From Minisyncoccota bacterium (lineage in GTDB: Bacteria > Patescibacteriota > Minisyncoccia > Phycocordibacterales > UBA9973), in contig JAIPHX010000003.1 in assembly GCA_021734995.1 (NCBI GenBank), positions 11,969-75,968 on the forward strand: a stretch of DNA of 64,000 nucleotides. The letters run 5' to 3'. The notes below the pieces were generated by a model. That model was given only the letters and a program-made list of their open reading frames with translations, was not told the origin of the DNA and ran no database searches. A program made the position numbers and the translations under genes. This document shows positions 6,261 to 24,202 of this stretch, one piece after another. Position 1 is the stretch's first letter. Each line of letters opens with the position of its first letter.

Positions 6261-6332
6261 TGCGAGATCGTCTAATGGTAGGACAACGGTTTCTGGAACC
6301 GTCTATCTAGGTTCGAATCCTAGTCTCGCAGC
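6261..6332 (+). tRNA. tRNA-Gln (anticodon CUG)
   Basis: Manually folded cloverleaf. Acceptor tgcgaga/tctcgca, D-stem gtct/ggac, anticodon stem acggt/accgt with loop ttCTGga, T-arm ctagg-ttcgaat-cctag. No encoded CCA. Confidence 0.8.
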
Positions 6333-6401
6333 AGTCTAGTTTTTCGTACCTAGTGACCAAGATGGGTGTTCTGTGTTAATTTTTTAATATAATTCTAACT
6401 T

Positions 6402-9113
6402 ATGAATAAACTGGATAAAGAAATACTAACCATCGATAAGGCCATTTGTAAAAATATCGATAAATACCACGCATCAGAAAGAGGTCTTTTGGCGCAGAAT
6501 ATCCTTTCTCAGCTCAGAAATTTTATAGAACGCGTCGCTCTTAAAGAAGAAACCAACGGACAAGATATTGATTTTAATTTCGAGGATTTAAAAAGAGCTC
6601 CAAATAGACTACAGCCAAATGGGTCACTATGGTTTATTAGAAGGTTCCATAATTTTCTGCAAGGTGTTGCAGGTCACGATACTCAAACCGAAGAAAATTC
6701 TGAGCGCTTGATGTTAAAATATTATGAATATTTACTAAGAGTCAAAGCCTACCTAAAAAATACTCACGGTTTAGATGTTCTAGATAATATTGATAAATTT
6801 CCAATAAATACTGACCCTGCGTTGCAACAGTATTATGAAAAGATAGCTGAAAGAATTGAGCGTCCAACTAAAACAAGAATAATCAATTCTTATAATGGAC
6901 GCTATTACATTCAAAAGATTAAACCATTTTTTGTTAATCACGAAATATACTATGAAGTCACTTTTACAATTGCCAGTGCTCAAGTTAGTAAATTTGATAG
7001 AGTTATTGCTTTTACGAAATTGAATATCCCTGATAATTACGCTGTTAAATTTTCTTTAATTCATGACGACATAGAGGTCTTAAGCAAAAAAATGCCCATA
7101 CAAATTATCGATAAATTTGAAGTTTCTATAAGGCCTTGCGAACTCAACAATTTTGGTCGCATTTTAGGTGAGAATGTAAAGATCGAGACAAAAAATGCAG
7201 AGTATAAAAATCTAATGGGTTTTCTAACAGACACAAAGCTAAGCCTCGTTGAGCTTATTGACCTTCCAGATGATTATTATGATGCTATAAAAACACGAAT
7301 CGTTCAGGGTCTTCAGGTTGTATACTTTTTGCCAATCTTAGACAAAGTGAGGACTCTAGTTAAGAACAATGAAGTTGGCATCAACGTAGTTAGATACTTA
7401 CTCCATTGTTTAAATAATAGAATTATAAAGTTACAGAATAGTTATTATGGCGGGTATAAACTTCGCACAGACTTCAATCTAAATCTTGGATGTAAGCCGT
7501 TCGACACAATGCCCGTTAACTCATCTTTAATAGGACATAATCCCGAAATTTCAACCGTTTTTGAATGTATTGATGCAACAGATCGAGAACACGAACTATT
7601 TGGAAGACTTATAAAAAACAATACAGAGAATAAGGGAAAGCTGTACACACCTCTAACAGGTTTGATCAAGACAAAGAAAGAAATTGAATCTCTTGTTAAG
7701 ACTTATAATAGTAAGTTGTATCTCCCCAAACATAACCATCGCAAGCTGGAGAATTTTAATGATTTTATTTATATAAATGGATATGAAAAAGATACTTTAG
7801 ACATTATCAAAAAATTTAAAGAATTGACCTTAAATGGTATAAGCAACTACTCAAATTCGGTGGACTCATGGTTAAGATCATCTGCGTACAAAATTGATTG
7901 CAAGGATAAAGAAAAAATACTCAGACAGTTATTTGCTGATTCAGAGATAGCCTTGGTATATGGGGCAGCGGGAACAGGAAAATCGACATTAATAAATCAC
8001 ATATCAAACTTTTTCAACGATAATAAAAAGCTCTATTTAGCAAATACCTATCCAGCACTTGATAATTTAAAGAGAAAAGTAACCGCAGCAAATTGCAAGT
8101 TTCAGACAATCGCAAAGTTTCTATCACCTAAAAACACTGAAGTCGACTTTGATATTCTCATCATTGATGAGTGTAGTACTGTCAGCAACATACATATGGT
8201 TAATGTCTTGAGTAAGGTAAAATTCAAATCATTGATACTAGTTGGCGATGTGTTTCAAATTGAACCTATCATATTTGGAAACTGGTTTAATATCGCGCGA
8301 TATTTTATACCCAAGACTGCTGTCTCAGAATTAACCGTTCCTTATCGCACTACCAACAAAGAATTGATTGAATTCTGGAATAGGGTCAGAAACTTACAAG
8401 ACAACATTCTTGAAAGTATGACTAGAAACGATTATACCACTGTTTTGAATGAATCAATTTTTAAGAACCTTGAAGATGATGAAATTATTCTTTGTTTAAA
8501 CTATGATGGCCTGTATGGCATCAATAACTTAAACAGGTTTCTTCAGAATAGTAACGAAAACGCACCTGTTGATTGGGATATACAAACCTACAAGACTGGA
8601 GATCCAATACTTTTTAATGAAACCGAAAGATTCGCGCCACTAATATACAATAACCTTAAAGGTAGGATTGTTGACATAAATAAAGCCGAGAAGCAAATTC
8701 AATTTGATATTGAAATTGACAAGGCCATAAACGAACTACAAGCATCTGACTATGATTTTAAGTTAGTTGGAAGTGCTGAAAATGGAAACTCAATCATTAG
8801 ATTCATTGTTAATGAGCGAGGCAACACGGATGAAGATGATGATCCTTTAGATTCCGTAGTTCCATTTCAGGTTGCTTATGCTATTTCTATTCATAAAGCT
8901 CAAGGTCTAGAGTATAATTCAGTAAAGATTGTTATCTCAAGTGAGACTGAAGAAATGATAACTCATAACATTTTCTATACAGCCATAACTAGAGCCAAGG
9001 AGAAACTAAAAATATATTGGACACCTGAAGCAGAGAAAAAAGTTTTGGCTGGTTTTCAAAAACTTGATAGTACTGAAGATGTAGAGATTTTATTTTCAAG
9101 GTTAAGTCCATAG
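6402..9113 (+). CDS. SF1 RecD/Dda-like helicase (AAA_30 + UvrD_C-like) with about 500-aa unknown N-terminal region
   Basis: Walker A ALVYGAAGTGKST, Walker B LIIDECS, and C-terminal motifs VAYAISIHKAQGLEYNSVKIV and IFYTAITRAKEKL are typical of RecD/TraA-like helicases. Confidence 0.7.
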   Translation: MNKLDKEILTIDKAICKNIDKYHASERGLLAQNILSQLRNFIERVALKEETNGQDIDFNFEDLKRAPNRLQPNGSLWFIRRFHNFLQGVAGHDTQTEENSERLMLKYYEYLLRVKAYLKNTHGLDVLDNIDKFPINTDPALQQYYEKIAERIERPTKTRIINSYNGRYYIQKIKPFFVNHEIYYEVTFTIASAQVSKFDRVIAFTKLNIPDNYAVKFSLIHDDIEVLSKKMPIQIIDKFEVSIRPCELNNFGRILGENVKIETKNAEYKNLMGFLTDTKLSLVELIDLPDDYYDAIKTRIVQGLQVVYFLPILDKVRTLVKNNEVGINVVRYLLHCLNNRIIKLQNSYYGGYKLRTDFNLNLGCKPFDTMPVNSSLIGHNPEISTVFECIDATDREHELFGRLIKNNTENKGKLYTPLTGLIKTKKEIESLVKTYNSKLYLPKHNHRKLENFNDFIYINGYEKDTLDIIKKFKELTLNGISNYSNSVDSWLRSSAYKIDCKDKEKILRQLFADSEIALVYGAAGTGKSTLINHISNFFNDNKKLYLANTYPALDNLKRKVTAANCKFQTIAKFLSPKNTEVDFDILIIDECSTVSNIHMVNVLSKVKFKSLILVGDVFQIEPIIFGNWFNIARYFIPKTAVSELTVPYRTTNKELIEFWNRVRNLQDNILESMTRNDYTTVLNESIFKNLEDDEIILCLNYDGLYGINNLNRFLQNSNENAPVDWDIQTYKTGDPILFNETERFAPLIYNNLKGRIVDINKAEKQIQFDIEIDKAINELQASDYDFKLVGSAENGNSIIRFIVNERGNTDEDDDPLDSVVPFQVAYAISIHKAQGLEYNSVKIVISSETEEMITHNIFYTAITRAKEKLKIYWTPEAEKKVLAGFQKLDSTEDVEILFSRLSP

Positions 9114-9121
9114 TAACTAAT

Positions 9122-10387
9122 TTATTCAATTACTACACGCTTATTGATGAGTATCAATTTACTCGTAAACGATTGCATCAAATCTCTCTTTTCTTGAAGA
9201 GTTCCTTCTTTAAGAAGATATTTCATATAGTTTCTAACATCTAGTTTTGTCTTTGCTATTTTTTCGTCATTGGTTAGGTCTAATACTTTATTTCTAAACT
9301 CACTATATCTTTCAATTTCTTTTTCAAGTTTTTCTTTTATTCCAACATTATTTATATCTATCCGGTCAATGATTTCAAGTAGTTGGGAAATTAATTCTTC
9401 TTCGCGAATGTAAGTATTTTTACATTGTTTATCATTAAATTTAGTACAACCATAATAAATATATTTTGCTACACTTCCATTCGCTAGATTTTTATGTTTT
9501 TCATCAGCGGTAACTCCCGATTTACACATCCCACATTTTATTAGCCTAGTGAAAGCAAATTCTTTTTCAATTTTTTTGTCATTCTTTTTGGTGTCCAATC
9601 TTTCTTGAACCCTTTGAAATATTTCCTTACTAACTATTGGATCATGTCTTCCTAAGTACCATTTACCTGATTGTCTAGGATATTCAATCATTCCCATGTA
9701 AAAATTATTTCTTAGAATAACTTGGATATTACTAAGAGTTAAAGGTTTTCCGTTTCTAGTTGTAAATTTTACATCTTCTTTTGCCCATTTATATAATTTT
9801 CTTATACTTAAATTTTCATTTAAAGCTTTTTCAAATAATAAACGTACCACATGAGATCTTAATGGGTCTGGTATCACATGACATTTCATAGTCCTATCTG
9901 GATGATTAAGATATCCAGTAGGGGCGACGCTTGGCCAGAGCCCACTCTCTACTCTTGTTCTTAATCCTCGTTTTACATTTATACTTTTATTATCATTTTC
10001 TAATTTTGCTTGTGATCCAAGAATCATTAATAAAAATTTTTCATTTGGGTTGTTTGTGAATCGCTGACTATAAGTTCTGATTTCAATTAATTTCTTTTGA
10101 TCTAGTAAATCAACTATTGCTCCAAGGTCCCCAGCATTTCTGGCGAGACGATCTGGATGCCACACTAGAATTGCATTAAATTTCCCAATACGAATATCAT
10201 TTAGAAGTTGATTGTATACAGGTCTTTGTCCACAATCTTTTGCTGAGTGTGATTCTTTATATATTTCAACAATATTTAAGTTTTCTCTCTGAGATAAGGT
10301 GAGCATCTCCTTTATCTGAGAATCTATAGATAAAGCTTGTTTTTCCTCTGCCTCGCTCGATTTGCGGGCATATAAGCAGTATTTCAT
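9122..10387 (-). CDS. Large serine recombinase (resolvase/invertase catalytic domain + recombinase domain + zinc ribbon)
   Basis: YARKSSEAEEKQALSIDSQ (catalytic Ser) and LVWHPDRLARN motifs, with a Cys-rich C-terminal region (CGMCKS...YYGCTKF...C). The ORF could start 33 codons upstream at 10486. Confidence 0.75.
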   Translation of the reverse strand: MKYCLYARKSSEAEEKQALSIDSQIKEMLTLSQRENLNIVEIYKESHSAKDCGQRPVYNQLLNDIRIGKFNAILVWHPDRLARNAGDLGAIVDLLDQKKLIEIRTYSQRFTNNPNEKFLLMILGSQAKLENDNKSINVKRGLRTRVESGLWPSVAPTGYLNHPDRTMKCHVIPDPLRSHVVRLLFEKALNENLSIRKLYKWAKEDVKFTTRNGKPLTLSNIQVILRNNFYMGMIEYPRQSGKWYLGRHDPIVSKEIFQRVQERLDTKKNDKKIEKEFAFTRLIKCGMCKSGVTADEKHKNLANGSVAKYIYYGCTKFNDKQCKNTYIREEELISQLLEIIDRIDINNVGIKEKLEKEIERYSEFRNKVLDLTNDEKIAKTKLDVRNYMKYLLKEGTLQEKRDLMQSFTSKLILINKRVVIE

Positions 10388-10546
10388 AGTAATGGCTTCT
10401 GTTAGCTTGGGATTTATTAGGATGTTTGTCGCATATGTTTCCATACACACAACATACCGCGAACGTTTATTAAGTCTAGTAAACACATCGAAATGGAGCA
10501 GAAATTTTATAAAGTCAAATATAAAGATGTGATATAATCAACTTAT

Positions 10547-12160
10547 ATGAAAATCTCTAAAATTGAAGTTGAAAATTTTAAATCTATTGAAAAATATGAT
10601 TTTGACTTAAAAGACATTAATATTTTTATTGGTAAAAATAATCACGGTAAAACAAATCTTTTTGATGCATTAGATTGGTTTGATTCTGGAAAAACAGAAC
10701 CTTCTAATTATAGAAACAATGATAGGGCTTTGCTAATAAAAGTGAGATTACATTTCGTCGGAGCTCAGGTAGCAGTTAATGCACTTGAGGATGGTGCATA
10801 TAAAACAGCAATGATAAATGCCCTAGAAGGAACAGATGAGTTTATTGTTGAAAAAGACAGCGAAAACGATAAAAGAGTTTTGATTGTTAACGGCACTACA
10901 AGACCAAATCCAAGAGGTTTTGATTCTGCTCTAAATTATTTTTTACCAAAAATAATTTATGTAACAACAAAACAGCGTTTGTCTGATATTGCTGGTTATA
11001 AATCAAAATCTCCAATCGCAGAAATGTTAGGAGATGTCCTGAAAGATATGGTTGATAATGAACCAAAATATAAGCAATTTCTCGAACTTTTTGATGATCT
11101 TTTTAATGAGAGTGATTCTGTGTTTAGACAATCAGTGAACAACCTACAAGACAGAGTAGAATTTTATCTCGCAAAACAATTTGATGAAGCAGCTGAGGTT
11201 AAATTTCGAATTGAGAATCCTGCTATCGAAGATATGCTTAAGAAATTTGAAACAGAGGTTGATGACGGAATTAAAACAAAAGCTGAACATAAGGGGGATG
11301 GAATGCAACGAGCAGTAATGCTTGCAATTGTTCAAGCATATGCGGATTTTCGAAAAGAAAAAGGTATCGCTAGAACATTTACTTTTCTTATTGATGAAGC
11401 TGAATTACACTTACACCCAACAGCTCAGAGAGCTTTAAAAAATGCCCTCCGTGAGATTGTGGAAAATGAAGGACAAGTACTTATAAATTCACATTCCCCA
11501 ATCTTTGCAAACGAGCTTTTTACAAATCAAAAGATTTATAAAGTAGAAAAGGAAACAGGAGTTTCTCAAGTTAATGAAATTATCACTGAGCAAGAGCAAT
11601 TAGACTCTATTTACCAACTTCTTGGAGGTAGTCCGCAAGACATTTTATTACCAAGTAATTTTATAATTGTTGAAGGACAATCTGAATTCCATCTATTAAA
11701 AAAGCTCATTGAAAAACTATATTTTGATAACAAAAAATGTTCAGCCATTAAAATACTTTTCGCTCGGGGTGATCATGAAAAACATAAAGATATTTATCAT
11801 TGCATTCATCAATGTTATACTCCATTACTTACAAACGGTATTTATAAAAATAAGGTAGTATTTCTCATGGATAGTACAGATCCATCAAAACAAGCCTCTT
11901 TTGATACCTTCAAGGCAACACATAGTTGGCTTATTGAAGGAGAACAACTACATGTTCTAACTGTTCCAGCTATTGAAATGATTTACCCTGATTCATTTAA
12001 AAAAACAAAACTAGAAGTTGATAAAATGACCAATCCAAAAGAAAAAATAAATATTGCTTTAGGTGTAGCAAATTCAATCAACACCAAACAAGAGCTTCAA
12101 GATAAAATGCCAGCAATTTTTAACATGTTAGAGAAAGCAATAGAATTTGCTTATGAATAA
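10547..12160 (+). CDS. OLD-family nuclease (ABC-type ATPase + C-terminal Toprim), solitary class-1-like
   Basis: Walker A GKNNHGKTN. Walker B/D-loop LIDEAELHLHP. H-loop LINSHSPIF. A Toprim-like IIVEGQSEF glutamate is followed by an MDSTD acidic motif. Confidence 0.65.
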   Translation: MKISKIEVENFKSIEKYDFDLKDINIFIGKNNHGKTNLFDALDWFDSGKTEPSNYRNNDRALLIKVRLHFVGAQVAVNALEDGAYKTAMINALEGTDEFIVEKDSENDKRVLIVNGTTRPNPRGFDSALNYFLPKIIYVTTKQRLSDIAGYKSKSPIAEMLGDVLKDMVDNEPKYKQFLELFDDLFNESDSVFRQSVNNLQDRVEFYLAKQFDEAAEVKFRIENPAIEDMLKKFETEVDDGIKTKAEHKGDGMQRAVMLAIVQAYADFRKEKGIARTFTFLIDEAELHLHPTAQRALKNALREIVENEGQVLINSHSPIFANELFTNQKIYKVEKETGVSQVNEIITEQEQLDSIYQLLGGSPQDILLPSNFIIVEGQSEFHLLKKLIEKLYFDNKKCSAIKILFARGDHEKHKDIYHCIHQCYTPLLTNGIYKNKVVFLMDSTDPSKQASFDTFKATHSWLIEGEQLHVLTVPAIEMIYPDSFKKTKLEVDKMTNPKEKINIALGVANSINTKQELQDKMPAIFNMLEKAIEFAYE

Positions 12161-12202
12161 TTAATACTAGCTTATTTCCTACTTTTTATATATATTTATG
12201 TT

Positions 12203-13006
12203 ATGAATGTACTTACATTTTTACCCAAAAAAGATATAGAGAAATTTATAGATAAAGATGCTTACCTTGTTATTGAATATTTATTAAGGAAAGTAGCCTT
12301 TTCTCAACCAGAGGTAAGGAATAAATCTGAACTTTCTGGTATCCAAATAACAAAAGAGTTTTTGGAGGATTGGATAGCTCAAGCATGTAATTTAACAAAA
12401 GTAGGAGCTGGTAATTATCCTATTGATGTATATAGTCAAAATAAGTATGGAATAGATGTTAAATTTTTGACAGCAAAAATAAATAAGAGTGGTGATTATA
12501 CAAATAGCTATTCAAATGAAACTTCACTTAGCCAAAACTTTAAAATTGCCGGATTAGATTTAGATCAAATGTTTGCCAGTAAGAGATACGAAAATATATT
12601 ATCAGCTTGGATAAAAATTCTTGAAACTAAAATAAACATACCTATCAAAGATTTTAAACTGAAAAAAATTTATTATTTTATTTTTATTAGAGCTGGAAAT
12701 AAAGTTTCCTTAGCAATAGCTGATGTTAACAATAAAGAAATAAAAAAACTTACTACAAATAGATCAACAGATTCTTCTGTTTTTGTTCAGAATTTCATTG
12801 AAGATAAATATGGTAATGTAAAAATATATAAAAGTAAAAAAAGAATGGAACTTAGAGTTTTTCCTAAAAAATTAGAAGAGGATAAAAAAATGATCTCTTG
12901 GAATTTTAAAGATTTATATCCAGATATAATTTCACTTAGAGACGTAATTAAACATGAAGAGATAAAAGAGCACACTAAAAAACAGTTCAAAAAATTCTTT
13001 TCTTAG
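12203..13006 (+). CDS. Putative Type II restriction endonuclease (PD-(D/E)xK candidate)
   Basis: Convergent with, and 1 bp from the stop of, the C5-MTase gene. Candidate motif NYPID...GIDVKFLTAK (PD-x12-DVK). No other recognisable domain. Confidence 0.4.
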   Translation: MNVLTFLPKKDIEKFIDKDAYLVIEYLLRKVAFSQPEVRNKSELSGIQITKEFLEDWIAQACNLTKVGAGNYPIDVYSQNKYGIDVKFLTAKINKSGDYTNSYSNETSLSQNFKIAGLDLDQMFASKRYENILSAWIKILETKINIPIKDFKLKKIYYFIFIRAGNKVSLAIADVNNKEIKKLTTNRSTDSSVFVQNFIEDKYGNVKIYKSKKRMELRVFPKKLEEDKKMISWNFKDLYPDIISLRDVIKHEEIKEHTKKQFKKFFS

Positions 13007-13007
13007 A

Positions 13008-14585
13008 TTACTCCATCGCTTTCATCATCTGTTTAGCAACAGCTTCAACAACCGGAACACTAACTGAGTTCCCAAATTGTTTATAAAGTGCTGAATCTGC
13101 TAGATTTGGTAATTTAAAGTTATCAGGAAATCCTTGAATTCTAGCACATTCTCTTGGTGTTAATTTTCTTATCCCTTTTTTATCTTTTATTATCGGCACA
13201 TTGTGTCCACCCATACCCATATTAGCTGTTAGTGTGGGGCAAACACCGCTTTTATTTTCCCTGACATATTGTCTTCTCCATTGATATACCTTTCCTACTT
13301 CTTTTACGTCTTTTTTAAGTTTTTCAAAAAGAGGTTTACCATTATAGTAATATTTCTCAGGAACATTTTTCTCCAATAAATCCGTAATCTTTTTTGTTAA
13401 TTTAACTGGTTGTGGAAATTCAAATTTATCATAATAATCTTTGTTTTTAAACCCGACTATATAGATACGTTCACGATTCTGGGGGACATTACCATACTCC
13501 ATGGTATTTAATACTTTTGCTTTAACATGATAACCCAAGTCGTGTAAGGTTTCTTCGATTACTTTGAAAGTATTGCCTCCATCATGACTTTTTAAATTTT
13601 TTACATTCTCAAGCATAAAACCTTCTGGATTTTTTGCCCTAATAATTTTTGCTATATCAAAGAATAGATTTCCTCTATTTTTTGGATCATCAAATCCTTT
13701 GCGATATCCTGCAATTGAAAATGCCTGACAAGGGAAACCTCCCAAAATGAAATCAAATTCAGGTAAGTCATCAATTCCTAGTTTTCTTATATCTTCAACT
13801 ACAAGTTTTGAGTCTTTGAAGTTAATATCATATGTTTGTTTACATGGAGCATCAAAATCATTTGCAAAGACTGTTTTAAATCCTGCATTTTCAAACCCCA
13901 TTCTTATTCCTCCTATACCAGCAAATAAATCTATTGTTTTAAATCCATGCTTAGTTTTCTTTTGAGACTTCTTCTCTTCTTCCTGTTTTGGGCTACTGAT
14001 TATTTGAACAACCACACCTCTAACCTCAACTTCTTTTCTGTAAAAAGGAAGCATCGATTGATTTCTAGGTTCTAGTCTAAATTTGTTTTTTTCTCTGTAT
14101 AATTTTTTTAATGTTGCTTCATTATCATCAATAATAGCAACAACCGTTTGTCCATTTTCAGCTACTGACTGTTTTTTAATCACCACGATGTCTCCATCAA
14201 ATATTCCTTCTTCAGTCATACTGTCTCCTTGAACCCTGAGAGCATAGTATTCTTTTGGGTTCTTAATACTAGAATTTATTATTGAAATAGTCTCTGTTCT
14301 ATCCTCAATAGCTTCTATTGGCTGTCCAGCGGCGATACTTCCCATTACTGGTATTTCTAAAACTTTAAATGTTTCGATTTTGGGTTCTATACTTCTAGAT
14401 AAATTCTCTGATTTACTTATGTATCCTTTTTCTTTTAATGCGTTTACATGTTCGTGAACAGTAGAGATAGCCTTGAGTTTGAATTTCTTACGTATCTCAT
14501 CATTCGTGGGGGATATGCCATTTTCGGCTATGTATGAGTTAATAAAATCCAATATTAGTTTTTGTTTTTTTGTTAATGATTGCAT
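13008..14585 (-). CDS. LexA-like repressor (HTH + S24 autopeptidase) fused to DNA (cytosine-5)-methyltransferase
   Basis: The N-terminal 200 aa include a winged HTH, cleavage-site-like IAAGQP, the Ser nucleophile GDSM and NGQTVVAIIDDNEATLKKL (LexA Lys region). The C-terminal 325 aa carry MTase motif I DLFAGIGG, motif IV GGFPCQAFS, motif VI ENVKNL, QNRERIYIVGF and motif X GNSVSVPV. The ORF is continuous. Confidence 0.8.
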   Translation of the reverse strand: MQSLTKKQKLILDFINSYIAENGISPTNDEIRKKFKLKAISTVHEHVNALKEKGYISKSENLSRSIEPKIETFKVLEIPVMGSIAAGQPIEAIEDRTETISIINSSIKNPKEYYALRVQGDSMTEEGIFDGDIVVIKKQSVAENGQTVVAIIDDNEATLKKLYREKNKFRLEPRNQSMLPFYRKEVEVRGVVVQIISSPKQEEEKKSQKKTKHGFKTIDLFAGIGGIRMGFENAGFKTVFANDFDAPCKQTYDINFKDSKLVVEDIRKLGIDDLPEFDFILGGFPCQAFSIAGYRKGFDDPKNRGNLFFDIAKIIRAKNPEGFMLENVKNLKSHDGGNTFKVIEETLHDLGYHVKAKVLNTMEYGNVPQNRERIYIVGFKNKDYYDKFEFPQPVKLTKKITDLLEKNVPEKYYYNGKPLFEKLKKDVKEVGKVYQWRRQYVRENKSGVCPTLTANMGMGGHNVPIIKDKKGIRKLTPRECARIQGFPDNFKLPNLADSALYKQFGNSVSVPVVEAVAKQMMKAME

Positions 14586-16180: not shown

Positions 16181-16448
16181 CTTAACTACACAATAATTTA
16201 AATTCAAGCTAAGCTTTTAATACCTCTAAAAATGAGGTATAATTTTAGTACAAGTGAATATGAGTAGCCTAAACCATTGAGAAATTGGTGGCATGGTGAA
16301 TAAGTCGCGTTCAACATAAAAACCCTATCATTAGGGCGTTGAACGCGCTGTATGAGGAAACTCATATATGAGACTTCGGTCTCTACCTAGTGGTAGGATT
16401 TTTGCGTCTTATCATAGGATTTATTACTAAAACGCAAAAATAATTTTT

Positions 16449-16919: not shown

Positions 16920-16954
16920 AAATAGTTATTACATAAACATAGCCGATAAATATT

Positions 16955-16992
16955 AAAAGCAATAAGTGGATAACTTATTGCTTTTAATATTT
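16955..16992 (+). terminator. Rho-independent terminator
   Basis: Perfect 12-bp hairpin aaaagcaataag-tggataa-cttattgctttt, followed by an AT-rich run. Confidence 0.6.
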
Positions 16993-17161
16993 TAGATTAT
17001 GAGTTACAATATAAATATATAAGTATGCTTTTTGTTTAAGCGGAGAGCAAACCCTTAAAAGAACTGATTCTAATTTTTAAAGAAGAAGTTTAACCCTAAC
17101 ACTAATCTGGTTCGGGTTTTTTATTTTTAGTCGATTATTATAACTTAATAAATAAAATTTT

Positions 17162-17590
17162 ATGGAAGAAGAAAACAATAAAATAAATAATCAGACAAAG
17201 GATTCATCAGCAATTAGAAAAATATTAATGAGTCGAATGGATAAAAAATACGAAGTATTAGAATATCAAAAAAATCAACAGTCTCGAACTTTTAAAAAGA
17301 AATTGGAGTTTGTTGCTAATCTCCAAAGAACTCATGGAAATATATCTGCTGCTTGTGAACTAAGTGGAATTAAAAGCAGAAAGACAGCTTATAATTGGTT
17401 AGAAAAGGATCCAGAATTGAGATCTATAGTAGATGAATTGATTACAATACAAAATGACGAAATGAATGATGTGGTTTTACACTTAGCGCTTGTAAAACAC
17501 GATGGTCCAACTATAAGACACTATTTAGATCATAATCATCCAGATTATATGAAGCCTAAAAGAATCACAAGGCCCCCATATAATCATTAG
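17162..17590 (+). CDS. Phage terminase small subunit-like / HTH DNA-binding protein
   Basis: HTH NISAACELSGIKSRKTAYNWLEKDPEL resembles terS/transposase-type HTH domains. Length 142 aa. Confidence 0.4.
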   Translation: MEEENNKINNQTKDSSAIRKILMSRMDKKYEVLEYQKNQQSRTFKKKLEFVANLQRTHGNISAACELSGIKSRKTAYNWLEKDPELRSIVDELITIQNDEMNDVVLHLALVKHDGPTIRHYLDHNHPDYMKPKRITRPPYNH

Positions 17591-17617
17591 GGCCAGTGTG
17601 TAATTTTGTTCGCTAAT

Positions 17618-17752
17618 AGCCTGCAAAGTGTGTAAAAATGTATAATTTGTACAGAAAATAACCCGACCTAGACGGGTTATTTTCTGTACCCTATAAATGC
17701 TACAATACCCTTACACACCCGTCTTGGTCTGGTACTAGACCAGACCTTGCAG
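17618..17752. other. Nested inverted-repeat element (17-bp perfect hairpin, 8-bp hairpin, closed by two long-range helices)
   Basis: gtacagaaaataacccg/cgggttattttctgtac (17651-17697). ggtctggt/accagacc (17727-17747). gtgtgtaa/ttacacac and ctgcaa/ttgcag close the structure. Confidence 0.5.
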
Positions 17753-17819
17753 CCATGTTGTGTGTAGCCCGAGATACGTCACATTCTGATATTTTTATCA
17801 TATTATATATAATATAATC

Positions 17820-18350
17820 ATGGAAGAAAAAACAATTAATGCATTAAGATGGATAATTTCAATTTTAAATAAACATAATATTCCATATGGAATAGGAGGA
17901 GGTTTTGCTGCTCACATGTACGGTTCAAATCGTAAAGTAAATGATATAGATTTTTCTTTATCTGGAAAATATTTCCCTATTATTGTTTCAGAAACTAAAG
18001 ATTATATCACCTCTGGTCCTAAACATTATTCAAATGCTAAATGGGATTGTGATACACTCTCACTTAAATATAATGATCAGGAAATAGATATTACTGATAT
18101 CGACACCTTAAGGATGAGCAATAAAGAACAAGATAAATGGTTTAAAACAAAAGATTATTTTCGTAAATATGAAACGGTGCCTATTGAGTTTCAAGGAATG
18201 ATAATTCAATTTATTGACCCTCGTGATTTGGTTGCTTATAAAAAAGAACTGGCTGATCAAAACCATTTATATCAAGCTTCTGATGTTGAAGCAGTAGAAA
18301 AATATATTAAAGCAAAAATCATTCCAGAAAATTTACTTATGTTACAGTAG
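17820..18350 (+). CDS. Aminoglycoside 2''-nucleotidyltransferase ANT(2'')-like protein (PF10706 family)
   Basis: IPYGIGGGFAAHMYGSNRKVNDIDF parallels AadB LPLWIGGGWAIDARLGRVTRKHDDIDL (NTase fold G..D.D). Length 176 aa versus 177 aa for ANT(2'')-Ia. Confidence 0.6.
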   Translation: MEEKTINALRWIISILNKHNIPYGIGGGFAAHMYGSNRKVNDIDFSLSGKYFPIIVSETKDYITSGPKHYSNAKWDCDTLSLKYNDQEIDITDIDTLRMSNKEQDKWFKTKDYFRKYETVPIEFQGMIIQFIDPRDLVAYKKELADQNHLYQASDVEAVEKYIKAKIIPENLLMLQ

Positions 18351-18387: not shown

Positions 18388-18987
18388 ATGAAAAATACAT
18401 TTAATAATATAGAAAATAATAATATAAAAATTGGTTTTCCAAAGGTTTCAGAGATTGATCAGGTTTTAAATATACAAAAATTAGTTTTATTGAAAAATAA
18501 AAATTTAGGATTCAAAGAATCTTTAGAGATGGAAGGTTTTCTTGTAAATGAAATAACTAAAAATGATCTTGATTATGCAATAGAACATAATCAAAAAGAA
18601 TCTTTTTTCATAGTTTCAAGAAATAAAGATACTAAAATTAATGGTTATTTTCTTGCTTATGATATGGAATATTTTCTTGCAAATCATCCTGGTTGGTTTA
18701 TTGAATCTGGGGTTAGTCCTGAAACAATTAAAAACAAAAAAGTGCTATACGGCAAACATCTAGCTTCTGATGGAACTATCAGTGGAGTAGGAAAATCTTT
18801 AAATATGAAGATGTTTAATTTAGTAAAAAAACAAGAATATTCTCTCTATTTAGGAGAAATATGTGAGGGTCCAGTAAAAAACGATAAATCTTTAAATTTA
18901 CATTTAAACAAATTTGGAATGAAGAAGATAAGTGAGTATAAAGATTCAAATAATTTTGTTTGGGGTGTGTATGTTAAAGAAATTTAA
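18388..18987 (+). CDS. Putative GNAT-family N-acetyltransferase
   Basis: ISGVGKSLNMKMF resembles GNAT motif A (R/Q-x-x-G-x-G/A). Size 199 aa. Adjacent to the ANT-like gene. Confidence 0.35.
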   Translation: MKNTFNNIENNNIKIGFPKVSEIDQVLNIQKLVLLKNKNLGFKESLEMEGFLVNEITKNDLDYAIEHNQKESFFIVSRNKDTKINGYFLAYDMEYFLANHPGWFIESGVSPETIKNKKVLYGKHLASDGTISGVGKSLNMKMFNLVKKQEYSLYLGEICEGPVKNDKSLNLHLNKFGMKKISEYKDSNNFVWGVYVKEI

Positions 18988-19128: not shown

Positions 19129-19500
19129 ATGAAAAAGAAAGAAATGGCACCAAAAATAAACATTAAAACTTTAACTGAGCGTATAATAGATTTTCGTGAT
19201 GCTAGGGATTGGAAGCAATTTCACAACCCAAAAGATATTGCGTTATCTCTTGTTTTAGAGGCAACTGAAGTGATGGAACATTTTCAATGGAAAAGTAAAG
19301 AAGAAATGGAAAAATATATTGTCACTAATAAAGCTGATATAGCTGAAGAACTTGCAGATGTTCTGTATTGGGTTTTGCTCATGAGCAGTGATTTAAAGAT
19401 TGATGTACTCAAGGCTCTCGATAAGAAAATTTTAAAAAATGAAGGGAAATATCCGGTGCACAAAGCTAAAGGGAAACATACTAAGTATACTAAATTATAA
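19129..19500 (+). CDS. MazG-like nucleotide pyrophosphohydrolase
   Basis: EATEVMEHF...AEELADVLYWVL is the MazG EExxE/D metal-binding pattern. Length 123 aa. Confidence 0.6.
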   Translation: MKKKEMAPKINIKTLTERIIDFRDARDWKQFHNPKDIALSLVLEATEVMEHFQWKSKEEMEKYIVTNKADIAEELADVLYWVLLMSSDLKIDVLKALDKKILKNEGKYPVHKAKGKHTKYTKL

Positions 19501-19501
19501 A

Positions 19502-21535
19502 ATGTCTAATATTGTAACTTTTAAATATAAAAAGGAAAATTTTTATGAAATAAAACAATTTAATTTTGGGAGAAATTGGCCAGTAGTCTATTTAATTGAA
19601 GACAAAAAAGAGATTTATATTGGGCAAACAATTAATGCATATTACAGAAGTAAGCAACATTATGAAAATCCAGACAGAAGAAAACTGAGTGAAGTGCATA
19701 TTATAACAGATGAAGAATTTAATGTTTCTGCCACGTTAGATATTGAGTCTTGGCTCATTCAATATATTTCTGCTGATGGTAAATATATATTACAGAATGG
19801 AAATAGCGGGCTTAAAAATCATAATTATTATGATCGTATAAAATACAAAACCAAATTTGAAATAGCATGGAACGAGTTGAGAAAGATGGGATTAGTTAAA
19901 AATTCTTTAGAAGATTTAAAAAATAGTGATTTGTTTAAATATTCGCCATATAAATCTCTTACAGAAGATCAATTTTTTATTGCAAGAAAGATTTTTAGAG
20001 ATATTAAAAGAAACAAAAACAATACTTTTGTTATAAATGGTAAACCTGGTACAGGTAAAACAATTTTAGCTACATACCTTTTTAAATATTTAAAAGAACA
20101 AGATGAAACAAAAAATATGAAAATTGGTCTTGTTATTCCGATGACTTCATTGCGTACAACTTTAAAAAGAGTTTTTAGTAAAATAAAAGGATTGAAATCA
20201 AATATGGTTATTGGGCCGAACGGTGTTGTTCAAGAACAATATGATCTATTGATAGTCGACGAAGCACATAGATTACAACGAAGGAAAGGTATTATGGGTT
20301 TTGGTGCCTTTGATAATATAAATCGTCGGCTTGATTTAGGAAACAATGGTACACAGCTTGATTGGGTTATGAAATCTTCTAAACATCAAGTTTTCTTTTA
20401 TGATGAAAATCAAAGCATAAAACCTGCTGATATTAGATCTGATGATTTTAAAAATCTTAAAACAAAGAGATATGAATTAAAATCTCAGATGCGAGTGGAA
20501 GCAGGAGAAGAATATATCAAATCTATTGAAGATTTTTTTGATTTAAAAATTCCTCAAAATACAAGTTTTCTAAATTATGATTTAAAAATTTTTGATGAGG
20601 TAAAAGAAATGATTACTTTGATTAAAGAGAAAGACAAAAATTATAAATTATCTCGTGTAGTTGCTGGTTACGCATGGCCATGGCATACAAAGCCAAAAAG
20701 TAAATCAACTAAAAAACATGATATTGAGATAAGTGATTTAAAACTTGTTTGGAATTCTACAGCTCAAGATTGGGTTAATTCCCATAATGCTATAAATGAA
20801 GTTGGTTGTATCCATACTGTGCAAGGTTATGATTTAAATTATGTTGGAGTTATCATTGGACCAGAGTTTTATTATGACCCAATCAAGAAAAAATTTGGAG
20901 TAAATCGTGAACAATATTTTGATGTCAATGGAAGAAATGGTATTACAGATCCGAATGAATTAGAAAGATATATTATTAATATTTACAAAACACTTCTTAC
21001 TAGGGGGATTAAAGGAACTTATATTTATGTTGTAGATGAAAATTTAAGGGATTATTTTAAAAAACAATTTAAACAAAAAGTTTCCGAAACAGGTCTAAAG
21101 GAATTTTATAATACAGAAATGATAACCTCTCCTTTCACAATGGAAATGATTAGAATTCCATTAGTTGGTTCTGCTCCATGCGGAAATCCTTTTCTTGGTG
21201 AAGAAAACATAGAGCAGTATATTGAAGTTGAAAAAAATAAAATTAAACCTGGAACAAAATATTTCATAGTTAAAGCAAATGGAGATTCAATGAATAAAGC
21301 AGGTATTAATGATCAAGATTTAGTACTTTGTCGTTACTCTGAAAAAGGTGAAACGGGTGATAAGGTTATTGCATTACTTGATGGTGAAAATGTTACCATA
21401 AAATATTACGATAAAAAAAATGGGCGTAGAATTTTGTTGCCAAAAAGTACAAATATAACACATCAACCAATTTTCCCTAAAGAAGGTGATATAGTTCAGG
21501 GGATTGTTCAAGAAGTTTTGAATAAAAAATCTTAA
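19502..21535 (+). CDS. Tri-domain protein: GIY-YIG nuclease + DUF2075/Schlafen-like DEAH ATPase + UmuD/LexA-like S24 autopeptidase
   Basis: GIY-YIG: VVYLIEDKKEIYIGQT..R.KQH..E..N. ATPase: Walker A INGKPGTGKT and LLIVDEAHRL. C-terminus: cleavage-site-like APCGNP (UmuD Cys-Gly), GDSM Ser and VTIKYY Lys. The start sits 1 nt after the MazG stop (MSNIVTF); the listed ORF start at 19439 overlaps MazG. Confidence 0.7.
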   Translation: MSNIVTFKYKKENFYEIKQFNFGRNWPVVYLIEDKKEIYIGQTINAYYRSKQHYENPDRRKLSEVHIITDEEFNVSATLDIESWLIQYISADGKYILQNGNSGLKNHNYYDRIKYKTKFEIAWNELRKMGLVKNSLEDLKNSDLFKYSPYKSLTEDQFFIARKIFRDIKRNKNNTFVINGKPGTGKTILATYLFKYLKEQDETKNMKIGLVIPMTSLRTTLKRVFSKIKGLKSNMVIGPNGVVQEQYDLLIVDEAHRLQRRKGIMGFGAFDNINRRLDLGNNGTQLDWVMKSSKHQVFFYDENQSIKPADIRSDDFKNLKTKRYELKSQMRVEAGEEYIKSIEDFFDLKIPQNTSFLNYDLKIFDEVKEMITLIKEKDKNYKLSRVVAGYAWPWHTKPKSKSTKKHDIEISDLKLVWNSTAQDWVNSHNAINEVGCIHTVQGYDLNYVGVIIGPEFYYDPIKKKFGVNREQYFDVNGRNGITDPNELERYIINIYKTLLTRGIKGTYIYVVDENLRDYFKKQFKQKVSETGLKEFYNTEMITSPFTMEMIRIPLVGSAPCGNPFLGEENIEQYIEVEKNKIKPGTKYFIVKANGDSMNKAGINDQDLVLCRYSEKGETGDKVIALLDGENVTIKYYDKKNGRRILLPKSTNITHQPIFPKEGDIVQGIVQEVLNKKS

Positions 21536-21550: not shown

Positions 21551-22054
21551 TTGTTCAAAACAATATTATATAGAATGAATAAAACCACAAACTCTCAAGA
21601 ATCTAAAGGACGTGTACGTTTAAAAAAACTTGAAAAAGAAGGGAAGTGGGTTTTTCATGGTTCTGGATTAAAAATAAATATATTAGAGCCCCATCAAGCT
21701 TACAATTATCCAAAGAGTTCAGGGACAAAAGGGGTACCAGATGACAAGCCTGCAGTGTTTGCTTCTGTTTTTGCTGATGTTGCGATTTTTATGGCTGTGG
21801 TTAATAAATTAAATGCTCCATATAATTTTCGAAGTGGTTTTAGTGTGCATGGTGATAATACTTTTGAGTTTAGAGCGACAAAAGAAACAATGGAGCAAAT
21901 TCAGAACGTGAAAGGATATGTGTATGTGTTTGATAAATCAAAATTTAAAAATCGTTCTACGAGTGAATTACTGTCTTATAAAGCTGTCATACCAGATGAA
22001 ATGATTGTGGTTAATGAAAAAGATTTACCAAAAAATATTACTAGCATAAATTAA
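21551..22054 (+). CDS. Hypothetical protein
   Basis: A 167-aa ORF 15 nt downstream of the tri-domain gene. No recognisable motif. Confidence 0.4.
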   Translation: MFKTILYRMNKTTNSQESKGRVRLKKLEKEGKWVFHGSGLKINILEPHQAYNYPKSSGTKGVPDDKPAVFASVFADVAIFMAVVNKLNAPYNFRSGFSVHGDNTFEFRATKETMEQIQNVKGYVYVFDKSKFKNRSTSELLSYKAVIPDEMIVVNEKDLPKNITSIN

Positions 22055-22083: not shown

Positions 22084-22587
22084 ATGAAAATAACAGAAGA
22101 CTATTTAGAACAACATACTGGGCATAAATATATTTTTGAATATGAAGAAGTGGATTCTTTTGATGATTTACCGTATGAAAAATGCAGACAATGTTATGGT
22201 GTTTGTTTTTATGATGACAAGATAATAATAGTTTATAACAAGGAAAAAAATGTTTGGGGGATTATAGGGGGTACAATTGAGAAAGGGGAAACATTTGAGG
22301 AAACTCTTAAAAGAGAAGTAAAAGAAGAATCAAATATGGAAATCATAAAAGCTATCCCTATAGGATATCAAAAAGTTACTGATCCAAAAGATAAAGATTT
22401 TGTTCTTTACCAACTTCGTTATGCATGTGCTGTCCGACCATATGGTCCTTTTGTTGCTGATCCAACGGGTTCTGTAACAGAAATCAAGATAATTAACCCG
22501 AAAGACTACAAAAAGTATTTTTATTGGGGGAAAATAGGAGAAAGTATATTTAAGAGAGCTTTAGAGCTAAAAGCTGTTCTTTATTAA
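22084..22587 (+). CDS. NUDIX hydrolase
   Basis: Nudix box GGTIEKGETFEETLKREVKEESNMEI (Gx5Ex7REVxEExN). Confidence 0.7.
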   Translation: MKITEDYLEQHTGHKYIFEYEEVDSFDDLPYEKCRQCYGVCFYDDKIIIVYNKEKNVWGIIGGTIEKGETFEETLKREVKEESNMEIIKAIPIGYQKVTDPKDKDFVLYQLRYACAVRPYGPFVADPTGSVTEIKIINPKDYKKYFYWGKIGESIFKRALELKAVLY

Positions 22588-22701: not shown

Positions 22702-23475
22702 GTGATGAGTGAATATAAAAAAGAATTAGAGATTGCAAAAAATATTGCAAGGGATGCAGGGTTAATTATGCTGAAGTATTTTGATGGAGATCAACATGTA
22801 GAAATCAAAGAAGACAATTCTCAAGTAACCATTGCAGACAAACTTATTAATTCTCTAGTAATAGAAAGATTGAAGGTTGTATTTCCAGAGGATGGGGTAG
22901 TAGGGGAAGAAGAAAGTAATACCGAGTATGGTACTGGAAGAAAATGGTTTTGTGATCCAATAGATGGAACAATGGCTTTTATTTGGGGCACACCTACTTC
23001 AATGTTTTCTTTGGCTCTAGTGGTTGACGGTATTCCTGTCCTTGGAGTTGTTTATGATCCGTTTCTTGATAAATTATATGAAGCAGTAGTAAACCAAGGA
23101 AGTTTTTGTAATGGGCATCCTTTAAAAGTTTCTAACAAAGAATTAAACGATGGACTTGTGGTTACTACAAGTAGTATAAATAAAATAATGAAAAGACCAA
23201 ATCATTTAGTTCGTCTGTCAGAGATGGGAGTGCGTTTTGCTACTTTTAGTGGAGCTGTGTATAAAGCTTGTCTTGTGGCTAAAGGAAAAGCAGAGGCTTA
23301 TTTTGAAGATGGTGTGAACGCTTATGATATTGCTGCAGTGCAAGTGATTGTTGAGGAAAGTGGCGGGAAAGTTACAAATATTAAAGGAGAAAAACTTGAC
23401 TATACGAAACCATTTAAGGGAGCTGTTATTTCAAACAAGACTTCCCATGATGAAATGGTTAAGTGTTGCTCTTAA
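22702..23475 (+). CDS. Inositol monophosphatase family protein (SuhB/CysQ-like)
   Basis: Motifs GEEES and WFCDPIDGT (DPIDGT) are characteristic of the IMPase family. Confidence 0.7.
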   Translation: MMSEYKKELEIAKNIARDAGLIMLKYFDGDQHVEIKEDNSQVTIADKLINSLVIERLKVVFPEDGVVGEEESNTEYGTGRKWFCDPIDGTMAFIWGTPTSMFSLALVVDGIPVLGVVYDPFLDKLYEAVVNQGSFCNGHPLKVSNKELNDGLVVTTSSINKIMKRPNHLVRLSEMGVRFATFSGAVYKACLVAKGKAEAYFEDGVNAYDIAAVQVIVEESGGKVTNIKGEKLDYTKPFKGAVISNKTSHDEMVKCCS

Positions 23476-23605
23476 ATGAAAAAGTGTTAAATAGCATAAA
23501 ATAAAAATTTACAAAAACGTAAAAACGGACAGATGTGTTATAATTTATAGATTACAAGAAAGGGTGAAGTTATAAGAAAATTATAATACCAAATAAGAGA
23601 CAAAA

Positions 23606-24148
23606 ATGGCTTACGAAATAGAAACAAAGGTTTTAGACATAGACTCACTTGATATAAAACAAAAACTCATTGATTTGGGAGCAAAAAAAATTCAAGAAAC
23701 ACGGCTTGTTGTTGATTGGTATAGAATATTGGGGATAAAAGAAGGAGAAGATCCGTGGTTTTTAAGAATAAGATCAAATTCAAGTGGGGGACACGAGGTC
23801 ACATGGAAGGCAAAGTCAGATATTTTAGGGGTGGCAAGAAAACATAAAGAAATTAATTTTGAAATTAATGAGCCAGAAAAATTAGCTGATTTGTTTGAAG
23901 AATTAGGGCTTGAAAAATATGGACATCAAGAGAAAGACAGAACCTCTTTTGTTTATAAAGACTGGCAGTTTGATATAGACCAATATCCTAAAATGCCTGC
24001 ATTCCTTGAGATAGAAGGTAAAAGCGAAGAGTCGGTAAGAGAGGCGATGAAAATTCTTGGGATAGAGAAGAATCCTACTTGGGCAAAAGGAGAAAGGATT
24101 TTAATTCAGGATACTTACGGTTTAGATTGGTATGATATGAGATTTTAA
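23606..24148 (+). CDS. CYTH-domain triphosphate tunnel metalloenzyme
   Basis: N-terminal YEIETKVL (the ExExK CYTH signature). About 180 aa. Confidence 0.55.
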   Translation: MAYEIETKVLDIDSLDIKQKLIDLGAKKIQETRLVVDWYRILGIKEGEDPWFLRIRSNSSGGHEVTWKAKSDILGVARKHKEINFEINEPEKLADLFEELGLEKYGHQEKDRTSFVYKDWQFDIDQYPKMPAFLEIEGKSEESVREAMKILGIEKNPTWAKGERILIQDTYGLDWYDMRF

Positions 24149-24202
24149 TAAATATTTTAAAAAGATAATAAAAAAACACTCAAAGTAAAATAATATCCCC
24201 AA

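Follow-up and report, generated by a model that had tools for sequence, protein, structure and literature searches.

A tRNA-Gln-linked accessory island

We analyzed a 64,000-nucleotide (nt) stretch of contig JAIPHX010000003.1 from a Minisyncoccota bacterium (the window; overall GC content, ~32%), in which a tRNA-Gln(CTG) gene is followed by a large serine recombinase (i.e., an integrase) amid nuclease, helicase, and restriction-modification (R-M) genes. The closest relative in genome collections was a Candidatus Paceibacterota metagenome-assembled genome (MAG) with a 75% identical CorA protein (locus L001). The tRNA gene (positions 6261 to 6332, plus strand) was called by ARAGORN and scored 63 bits against the Rfam tRNA model. 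To its left, on the minus strand, lie genes for pyruvate kinase, a His-phosphatase, 2-hydroxyacid dehydrogenase, dihydroorotate dehydrogenase, a cupin, CorA, and YggU. An original prediction, made by a model from the letters alone, had stated that housekeeping genes end at this tRNA gene and that an accessory island with a serine integrase is anchored at its 3′ end. Both statements were borne out, and all of the genes named to the right of the tRNA gene were recovered by searches against Pfam, PADLOC, PHROGs, and NCBIfam. The island is real and was correctly spotted; its boundaries are revised here, and it is of a known kind.

Element-specific sequence begins directly 3′ of the tRNA-Gln gene, and the stop codon of the integrase lies 2.8 kb from it. 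A composition scan of the type suggested in the prediction revealed a modest deviation from the flanks, with a tetranucleotide distance of 0.21 to 0.29 over ~6 to 22.5 kb versus 0.13 to 0.19 in the flanks. Since the tRNA-Gln gene of L001 retains the syntenic YggU-CorA flank while the integrase, the cargo, and the post-tRNA sequence are all different, we regard the window gene as a host gene that serves as the integration anchor. In L001, the same slot is taken by a type III R-M system together with a recombinase only 55% identical to that of the window, although the CorA proteins are 75% identical; recombinases that are 73 to 83% identical occur in loci with other flanks. At the position of the right flank, where the first certain core gene encodes an inositol monophosphatase (IMPase), two relatives with 79 to 80% identical IMPases (L158 and L159) carry other recombinase elements. 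The gene order is thus not a conserved core synteny, the finding that would have spoken against an island. Two further relatives (IMPase identities of 76% and 82%; L160 and the P0126 contig) have only core genes, with no recombinase, within 10 kb of the IMPase gene.

We consider it probable that the region from 6.3 to 22.1 kb, between the tRNA-Gln gene and the core IMPase gene of a Paceibacterota chromosome, is an accessory island of composite nature and that it includes an integrative element at about 6333 to 17753, which belongs to a family distributed across the Candidate Phyla Radiation (CPR).

Integrase clades track tRNA type

The integrase (positions 9122 to 10444, minus strand; 440 amino acids [aa]) matched the Pfam domains Resolvase (4e-24, residues 38 to 182), Recombinase (1.2e-14), and Zn_ribbon_recom (3.3e-8), as well as the PHROG integrase family phrog_95 (1.8e-69). 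Its open reading frame (ORF) is open to position 10486 (454 aa); the likely start is the ATG at 10444, which yields a 440-aa protein identical to database protein P0001. In the catalytic region, Y22-C-L-Y-A-R-K-S-S-E is invariant across 14 homologues (alignment A3). Homologues number in the thousands, and the best 120 are 62 to 83% identical and derive from CPR MAGs. The recombinase had been described as divergently oriented next to the helicase gene; it is in fact convergent (tail-to-tail) with the helicase gene and divergent from the OLD gene.

The locus set comprised 80 loci from metagenomes and 67 from IMG/VR, and the comparisons below took in ~155 to 160 recombinase loci. The first six distinct loci shared one arrangement: the integrase, then a variable convergent cargo 1 to 8 bp past its stop codon, and then tRNA-Gln(CTG) on the cargo strand. 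DNA conservation stops exactly at the integrase stop codon, and the cargo in the slot between integrase and tRNA was different in each locus seen. It was the candidate defense gene PDC-S53 in the window, whereas L001, L003, and L004 had a type III R-M system, a Shedu-type SduA_C gene set, and a Hypoth_Ymh pair, respectively. The downstream tRNA was antiparallel (tail-to-tail) to the recombinase in all 54 loci that had such a tRNA; in 14 of these 54, the tRNA was located <250 nt from the integrase stop codon, which corresponds to a bare state without cargo. The tRNA species tracks the integrase clade, with Gln for the clade of the window and Ser, Arg, Asp, His, Glu, and others elsewhere. Nearest-neighbor recombinases shared the tRNA type in 44 of 54 cases (12.5 expected; maximum of 27 in 1,000 shuffles).

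Upstream of the integrase is a conserved noncoding leader of ~70 nt (positions 10445 to 10514, minus strand; TTGACTT..TTCTGCTC..CTAGACTT..GGTATGT..TGTGTGTATG), which is kept in the window, L003, L004, and L006 despite differing neighbors (alignment A1). A link between this leader and the right flank of the element was considered and dropped: a 12-nt piece of the leader recurs at positions 17754 to 17765, outside the right repeat block, in the window only and in none of the other loci. Two integrases lie in tandem beside one tRNA in L076, and several IMG/VR contigs likewise have two integrase copies. Another conserved motif, GGCATACC.GCTGAG.GC.GTATTCAGA, with a terminator hairpin after it, adjoins the tRNA in L013, L016, L018, L026, L066, and L099. 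It separates the trailer of the tRNA from the integrase or cargo, occurs with recombinase clades 57 to 61% identical to that of the window, and is absent from the window itself.

Repeats at the ends of the element

The left attachment (att)-like block (positions 6333 to 6369, plus strand) lies directly 3′ of the tRNA gene and consists of AGTCTAGTTTTTCGTACCTAGT and a 13-mer, GACCAAGATGGGT, at positions 6355 to 6367, i.e., beginning 23 nt past the tRNA. The 35 nt 3′ of the tRNA (the trailer) are conserved within the integrase clade (loci with recombinases at least 61% identical) and co-vary with the recombinase clade, not with the host flank. RNAalifold gave only four pairs and no covariation for a putative hairpin in the trailer, which is therefore conserved as sequence and not as structure.

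The right att-like block (~105 nt, positions 17649 to 17753) contains a perfect 41-nt palindrome (17649 to 17689) with a direct copy of the 13-mer (GACCTAGACGGGT, 17665 to 17677) at its center, an inverted copy at 17717 to 17729, a second palindrome at 17726 to 17746, and GCAGC at 17749 to 17753, the same 5 nt with which the tRNA ends. The 13-mer occurs three times in the window, where 0.06 occurrences would be expected, and in 100 shuffles it never occurred more than once. In the window, the 35-nt arms that extend inward from the two GCAGC copies are inverted repeats of each other (score of 15, reached in 0 of 500 shuffles). The right block is conserved across six loci that are unrelated in their outer flanks.

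The 13-mer recurs as a direct repeat around the integrase element in L003 (7595 and 15382), L006 (5546 and 12124), and L015 (712 and 13211); in L003 and L006, the identity extends to 15 to 16 nt that are specific to the locus. Arrays of three copies in L156 (1056, 1596, and 6778) and L157 (3531, 11458, and 13988) look like serial insertions, and L009 has the 13-mer at 5232. These arrays and the paired integrases in relatives suggest repeated insertions, some of them of cassettes without a recombinase. In L003, immediately beyond the far att of the element (5974 to 7407), we observed a pair resembling a diversity-generating retroelement (bAvd and reverse transcriptase fragments).

On the basis of the conserved trailer, the 13-mer pair, the right block with unrelated outer flanks, and the inverted arms, we placed a discrete element of 11.4 kb at about 6333 to 17753. 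The island had originally been drawn to 24.15 kb; the repeat-bounded element ends near 17.75 kb. The prediction had also proposed a search for att sites or for a direct repeat of the tRNA 3′ end, of which the former were found in att-like form and the latter was not. Other approaches to the ends gave little: a generic repeat scan of 6 to 32 kb returned only AT-rich chance matches, the exact 17-mer of the att palindrome had no match in IMG/VR, and a pseudo-tRNA in the right block was not used (no ARAGORN call at default settings and inconsistent calls at thresholds of 50 to 70%).

Defense genes between the repeats

The gene in the integrase-tRNA slot (positions 6402 to 9113, plus strand) encodes a 903-aa SF1B/RecD2-like helicase. 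As predicted, its N-terminal part has no known domain, and the Pfam helicase core starts at about residue 490. Residues 1 to 900 matched PADLOC candidate defense gene PDC-S53 (1,262 bits), and the NCBIfam RecD2 match (4e-37) was below the family cutoff. A 61% identical PDC-S53 homologue occupies the same slot of the tRNA-Ser element L100.

On the other side of the integrase, an OLD-family ATPase-nuclease (10547 to 12160, plus strand; Pfam AAA_15, AAA_21, and DUF2813; PADLOC Old, 2.8e-55) is followed by a candidate PD-(D/E)XK type II restriction endonuclease of 267 aa (12203 to 13006, plus strand), which has a P-x-D...D-x-K motif and a type II endonuclease fold. Convergent with it is a 525-aa fusion of the Pfam domains LexA_DNA_bind, Peptidase_S24, and C5 DNA_methylase (13008 to 14585, minus strand; DNA_methylase, 7.4e-96; PADLOC MTase_II, 3.4e-129). 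A C5 methylase with its catalytic motifs is thus paired with a nuclease candidate in the manner of a type II R-M system; as a caution for this pairing, the 97% identical methylase of L012 has a different convergent neighbor of 372 aa. The fusion protein retains the Ala-Gly (AAG) cleavage site, the GDSM serine, the LKKL lysine, and the PCQ and ENV motifs. Because the LexA, S24, and methylase motifs are all retained, we propose an SOS-type control of R-M, in which the protein would bind an operator and be cut upon RecA activation, so that R-M expression would respond to DNA damage. Proteins with the full-length architecture are rare: apart from fragments, only P0241 and P0343, comprising one other full-length cluster and one longer protein, were among the best 150 of 1.84 billion cluster representatives. 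The P0241 homologue (69% identical) adjoins the core genes for thymidine kinase and isoleucyl-tRNA synthetase, not an integrase element.

Next to the fusion gene is a 502-aa protein with an N-terminal Mrr-type nuclease domain (14672 to 16180, plus strand; Pfam Mrr_cat, 9.1e-6, residues 17 to 134), for which PADLOC and NCBIfam gave no match. A small membrane-anchored protein follows (16449 to 16919, plus strand), which has a tRNA_anti-like oligonucleotide/oligosaccharide-binding fold (Pfam, 5.4e-28) and is Sie-like (phrog_8545, 6.5e-28). The last gene before the right block encodes a terS-like helix-turn-helix (HTH) protein (17162 to 17590, plus strand) with a weak match to terS family phrog_4044 (7.5e-4). 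This protein clusters with terS-like proteins of other loci and is 30% identical (9e-11) to the product of the last gene of the L159 element, a gene directly adjoining that for IMPase. The terS-like gene that the prediction had noted was therefore confirmed as a backbone gene of the element family.

Defense-type matches in the island as a whole comprise PDC-S53, Old, MTase_II, the restriction endonuclease fold, Mrr_cat, the Sie-like protein, and weak Nhi/AbiO matches of a gene beyond the right block. Several cargo genes move between elements: in addition to the PDC-S53 homologue of L100, methylases 97% and 84% identical occur in L012 and L054 beside integrases only 63% and 55% identical, respectively, and the Sie-like gene is 98% identical in L125. 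We rejected a minimal mobile unit consisting of cargo and integrase between the CTAG motifs of the trailer and the integrase leader, because methylase and Sie-like genes nearly identical to those of the window, as well as members of the terS family, lie upstream of other integrases and because of the 13-mer pair.

LOOT RNA upstream of small membrane protein genes

Sixty-five nucleotides upstream of the Sie-like gene is a LOOT RNA (RF03000; positions 16266 to 16384, plus strand), which scored 74.5 bits in Rfam (gathering score, 46.4). LOOT is an orphan RNA typed as sRNA in Rfam. Across six copies of the element, 19 of 34 pairs showed compensatory changes. Rfam detected LOOT in five of seven related loci, and a model built in this analysis detected 47 copies in ~155 recombinase loci (about 1.9 Mb). 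Copies other than that of the window were located in L159 (8742 to 8863), L156 (2915 to 3033), L015 (1812 to 1941), L157 (4456 to 4581), L158 (1100 to 1215), and 41 further loci. Many are positioned 127 to 263 nt upstream of the integrase in divergent orientation or 45 to 75 nt past the integrase stop codon. Nearly every copy precedes an ORF, often with a gap of 57 to 70 nt and often encoding a small membrane protein; 10 of 45 such ORFs belonged to the tRNA_anti-like/Sie-like family, and many of the others encoded small membrane proteins. In L125, too, the Sie-like gene is preceded by LOOT. From this placement, LOOT looks like a cis-acting leader of the gene that follows it.

The stretch beyond the right block and the core flank

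The genes between 17.8 and 22.1 kb are foreign in composition, lie outside the repeats, include no recombinase, and, apart from S24-domain similarity, are absent from the 160 recombinase loci. The first encodes an ANT(2″)-like nucleotidyltransferase of 176 aa (17820 to 18350, plus strand; Pfam Aminoglyc_resit, 1.4e-4), which had no homologue in the 160 loci. A 199-aa ORF (18388 to 18987, plus strand; GC content, 24.7%) showed a very weak acetyltransferase (GNAT-like) match (NCBIfam ArsN1, 1.3e-3, far below the cutoff). Then comes a two-gene operon, in which the stop codon of a MazG-like nucleotide pyrophosphohydrolase gene (19129 to 19500, plus strand; Pfam MazG-like, 3.1e-15) is separated by one base from the ATG (19502) of a gene for a 677-aa protein (19502 to 21535, plus strand). 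The latter combines a weak GIY-YIG match (3.7e-4), a DUF2075/Schlafen-type helicase (SLFN-g3_helicase, 9.7e-70), and a C-terminal S24 domain (Peptidase_S24, 2e-18) in Pfam, with weak PADLOC matches to Nhi (2.6e-14) and AbiO (6e-14). Its C terminus keeps a UmuD-type Cys-Gly site, the GDSM serine, and the lysine, and it matched the lexA/UmuD families of NCBIfam; no close relatives were found in IMG/VR. These features suggest a nuclease-helicase that would be activated by cleavage, and the operon is possibly a damage-activated defense pair. The last clearly atypical gene is a 167-aa ORF (21551 to 22054, plus strand), which had no match in Pfam, PADLOC, PHROGs, or NCBIfam.

The prediction had left it undecided whether the Nudix, IMPase, and CYTH genes were cargo or core. 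The IMPase gene (22702 to 23475, plus strand) is core and outside the island, and it sets the right limit: homologues 76 to 85% identical occur in many Paceibacterota, and upstream of the gene only the promoter is conserved among relatives. The CYTH gene is probably core. The Nudix hydrolase gene (22084 to 22587, plus strand; Pfam NUDIX, 2.7e-10) lies at the boundary and could be either; its product is not similar to the IMPase-adjacent Nudix of L160.

Farther along the window, three consecutive ORFs without a Pfam match (302, 155, and 170 aa; 27833 to 29754, plus strand), the first with a GC content of 24.6%, may be another small accessory patch beyond the island. At 39 to 43.5 kb, the tetranucleotide composition is atypical, and the AT skew is strongly negative. 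An AdoCbl-II riboswitch (42569 to 42679, minus strand; 37.9 bits; gathering score, 36.5) lies upstream of a 714-aa ORF (40329 to 42473, minus strand). A complete 16S rRNA gene (48895 to 50472, plus strand; Rfam, 1,334 bits) explains the GC spike at 49 to 51 kb.

Terminase genes in relatives of the element

All ORFs from the fetched loci were clustered. Three families recurred upstream of the integrase and in most cases shared its strand: the terS-like family (~144 aa; 79 loci including the window), the large terminase subunit TerL (~500 aa; 67 loci; phrog_38, 2.3e-64), and a ParB-N6-methylase (88 loci; phrog_498). Most of the 78 homologues of the window terS-like gene adjoin a TerL gene, and a divergent LexA-like S24 repressor often lies alongside the three families. 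TerL and ParB-methylase genes were absent from the window copy.

Among 86 genes upstream of terS in TerL-bearing loci, the families matched were those of defense genes, namely, type I R-M, CBASS (SMODS, SAVED, and SLATT), GmrSD, OLD, MmeI, type ISP, and DruA. No capsid, portal, or tail family was among the 25 Pfam and 25 PHROG families most frequent in these genes, and no head, portal, tail, or lysis gene was detected in the window with Pfam and PHROGs. Given the defense families upstream of terS and the lack of structural families among those seen, the family appears to consist of compact terminase-carrying islands and not of complete prophages. A phage-satellite or integrative and conjugative element (ICE) origin had been proposed for the island. 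The satellite idea fits the family, whose fuller members resemble phage satellites and may be such, but the window copy lacks TerL, the ParB-methylase, and a replication module and has only part of what defines a phage satellite; the ICE idea found no support, as there were no matches to relaxase or conjugation genes.

Origin of the island

We suggest the following course of events. The integrase would have recombined a site on the element with a chromosomal site at or just past the 3′ end of the tRNA-Gln gene. This integration would have left the 35-nt left arm and the 105-nt right block, which share the direct 13-mer, plus the inverted arms of the window copy. Nearly all of the cargo would serve anti-phage defense or self-protection (PDC-S53, OLD, the type II R-M pair, the Mrr-like protein, and the Sie-like protein behind LOOT), with the terS-like gene in addition, and the methylase-fused LexA module would be autoregulatory until relieved by DNA damage through self-cleavage. 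The fuller relatives, which carry a LexA-like repressor, ParB-N6-methylase, TerS, TerL, and integrase genes and in which no structural genes were seen, may be SOS-inducible, terminase-equipped CPR phage satellites that use their own TerS and TerL for packaging into helper capsids and that are induced through the LexA-like repressor. Since TerL and the ParB-methylase have been lost, the window copy is probably largely a resident defense island, perhaps one that can still be excised. The stretch from 17.8 to 22.1 kb would be an older, recombinase-free remnant that was shifted away from the tRNA by serial accretion.

Several observations weigh against this account. No clean empty site was recovered: relatives compared at the IMPase gene had alternative elements or rearranged neighborhoods and never a tRNA-Gln gene joined to the right flank. 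All 27 tRNA-Gln genes in the fetched loci were occupied, no excision or circular junction was found, and the two metagenome contigs with the locus are identical to the window. The last 20 to 24 nt of the tRNA have no second copy in the window when up to three mismatches are allowed, the only trace being the GCAGC at 17749. The inverted-arm test was not significant in L003, L006, and L015; the 13-mer is not rare across loci when one mismatch is allowed, so that only its exact copies and their positions carry weight; and both GCAGC and the interior of the 13-mer are candidate positions for the crossover. The tetranucleotide composition does not return to background until ~22.5 kb, i.e., past the repeat pair. 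Regarding gene content, TerL is missing, no directionality factor was identified in the window, and none of the ORFs from 6.4 to 22.6 kb matched a primase, replicase, or initiator family. In addition, the terS-like gene of the window is on the strand opposite the integrase, which is unusual for the family, and in the closest clade, a DUF5681-type gene takes the terS-like position. We considered whether DUF5681 is terS-like and detected no similarity.

The low GC content and the tetranucleotide deviation that persist to ~22.5 kb would be expected if the whole region from the tRNA gene to about 22.1 to 22.7 kb were one element, with its true right end just before the Nudix or IMPase gene and the repeats at 17.65 to 17.75 kb being internal (e.g., serving as a terminator, pac site, or site of secondary recombination). 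Recombinase-associated regions do reach the IMPase gene in L158 and L159, and the 41-nt palindrome, 58 nt past the stop codon of the terS-like gene, could be a terminator. We nevertheless regard a single element as unlikely: the same right block marks the end of conservation and the start of unrelated host genes in L003, L006, L015, and L157, there is no further copy of the 13-mer near 22 kb, and the 17.8- to 22.1-kb genes are missing from the recombinase loci as described above.

A fixed chromosomal defense hotspot, in which the recombinase is domesticated or a relic and genes turn over by homologous recombination between the flanks or through other mobile elements, would account for the lack of excision evidence, for a locus identical in two samples, and for the missing TerL and ParB-methylase. 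The same tRNA-Gln/IMPase position is used in several relatives, and near-identical cargo beside differing recombinases points to cargo exchange independent of the integrase. Against such a hotspot, the recombinase is intact and strongly conserved with invariant catalytic-region residues, the end repeats are retained, recombinase clades are tightly coupled to tRNA type, and recombinase similarity is incongruent with flank similarity; the repeat arrays of L156 and L157 also resemble serial integrations. We judge this explanation quite improbable. Finally, the remains of a temperate CPR phage that lost its structural genes could explain why the integrase, terS-like, and Sie-like proteins match phage families, why 67 homologous loci come from IMG/VR contigs, and why relatives carry TerL, but such a decayed prophage is very improbable in view of the window and the TerL-bearing relatives, where no structural family was seen as detailed above, and of the same compact module in dozens of loci, which indicates a stable small element and not independent decay.

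Within the composite-island account, a more far-reaching version can be offered tentatively and is, in our view, rather doubtful. In this version, the island would be a decayed member of a phylum-wide group of CPR phage satellites of 6 to 12 kb that insert at tRNA 3′ ends by clade-specific large serine integrases and are silenced by a LexA-type, RecA-cleavable repressor. Having their own TerS, TerL, and ParB-methylase and no capsid genes, they would steal the capsids of helper phages, and they would be the main vehicles of defense systems (R-M, OLD, CBASS, Shedu, and PDC-S53) among Paceibacterota. LOOT would be the leader of superinfection-exclusion-type membrane genes, and the LexA-methylase would couple R-M to the SOS response.

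Comparison with known systems

Phage-type large serine integrases and the elements that they move include phiC31, Bxb1, TP901-1, A118, the Ccr recombinases of SCCmec, and TnpX. Like the phiC31-type enzymes, the window integrase combines resolvase catalytic, recombinase, and zinc ribbon domains, an architecture associated with site-specific insertion, and, as in phiC31-type elements, the candidate ends of the window element share only a short core with inverted arms. In contrast to these elements, the CPR family is found consistently at tRNA 3′ ends, with a tRNA specific to the clade and a variable cargo slot between the integrase stop codon and the tRNA. Targeting of tRNA 3′ ends is typical of tyrosine integrases.

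Like the window island, classical tRNA-linked genomic and defense islands, cataloged by Islander/TIGER (PMC12424338), are anchored at a tRNA 3′ end, have an integrase close to the junction, deviate in composition, vary in content between strains, and include R-M and abortive-infection-type genes. They differ in that the integrase here is of the serine and not the tyrosine type, and in that their repeat duplicates a tRNA 3′ segment, whereas that of the window is the 13-mer of the trailer. Overall, the window island is comparable in its workings to a tRNA-linked integrative defense island, with the domain features of a serine integrase and without the duplicated tRNA end.

Tycheposons of Prochlorococcus are compact elements of streamlined genomes that integrate at tRNA genes, carry modular cargo, and form tandem repeat junctions seen by PCR; some resemble phage-inducible chromosomal islands (PICIs) in having terS or a capsid gene, and 27 of 937 use a large serine recombinase (bioRxiv 10.1101/2020.12.28.424599). 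The CPR elements are likewise compact, tRNA integrating, and modular in cargo. Unlike them, tycheposons rely for the most part on tyrosine recombinases, and many have replication genes for a primase, helicase, or polymerase, none of which were seen as replication genes in the CPR element. Tycheposon cargo serves largely nutrient acquisition in contrast to defense, the host phylum differs, and tycheposons lack the TerL/ParB-methylase/LexA module and LOOT RNA of the CPR family.

PICI, P4-like, and PICI-like element (PLE) satellites carry defense hotspots, and PLE uses a large serine recombinase (PMC9122126, PMC9638900). Like these satellites, members of the CPR family are small and have an integrase, a repressor, one or more putative packaging genes, and variable anti-phage cargo. 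Unlike them, CPR members encode TerS as well as TerL, and capsid genes were not seen among them; in the window copy, TerL and any replication module are missing.

In autoregulated type II R-M systems, a DNA-binding domain attached to the methylase, as in the window, or encoded beside it would allow transcriptional control of the pair. Such autoregulation, whether through an HTH carried by the methyltransferase or through a C-protein, has been reviewed (PMC3874152). The window methylase differs from both arrangements in bearing an entire LexA whose S24 self-cleavage site is intact, which would place R-M control under RecA-activated cleavage.

We found nothing specific on the CPR element family, PDC-S53, the LexA-methylase fusion, or the function of LOOT in the searchable literature, which is an incomplete corpus.

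Implications for CPR bacteria

In other respects, the island itself is unexceptional. It reveals a family that seems to mobilize anti-phage genes around the phylum. CPR bacteria (Patescibacteria) make up a large share of bacterial diversity, and we did not find their mobile elements and their traffic in phage defense described in this form. The integrase rule (i.e., a tail-to-tail arrangement with a tRNA whose type is set by the integrase clade) marks accessory and defense DNA in these small genomes and can be used to mine islands, to delimit their cargo, and to seek new defense genes in the two cargo slots. The family is also a reservoir of candidate serine integrases for genome engineering, with predictable tRNA-linked targets. 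Finally, it raises the hypotheses that CPR bacteria may harbor terminase-bearing satellites, that a LexA-fused methylase may control R-M, and that the orphan LOOT RNA may have a genomic role.

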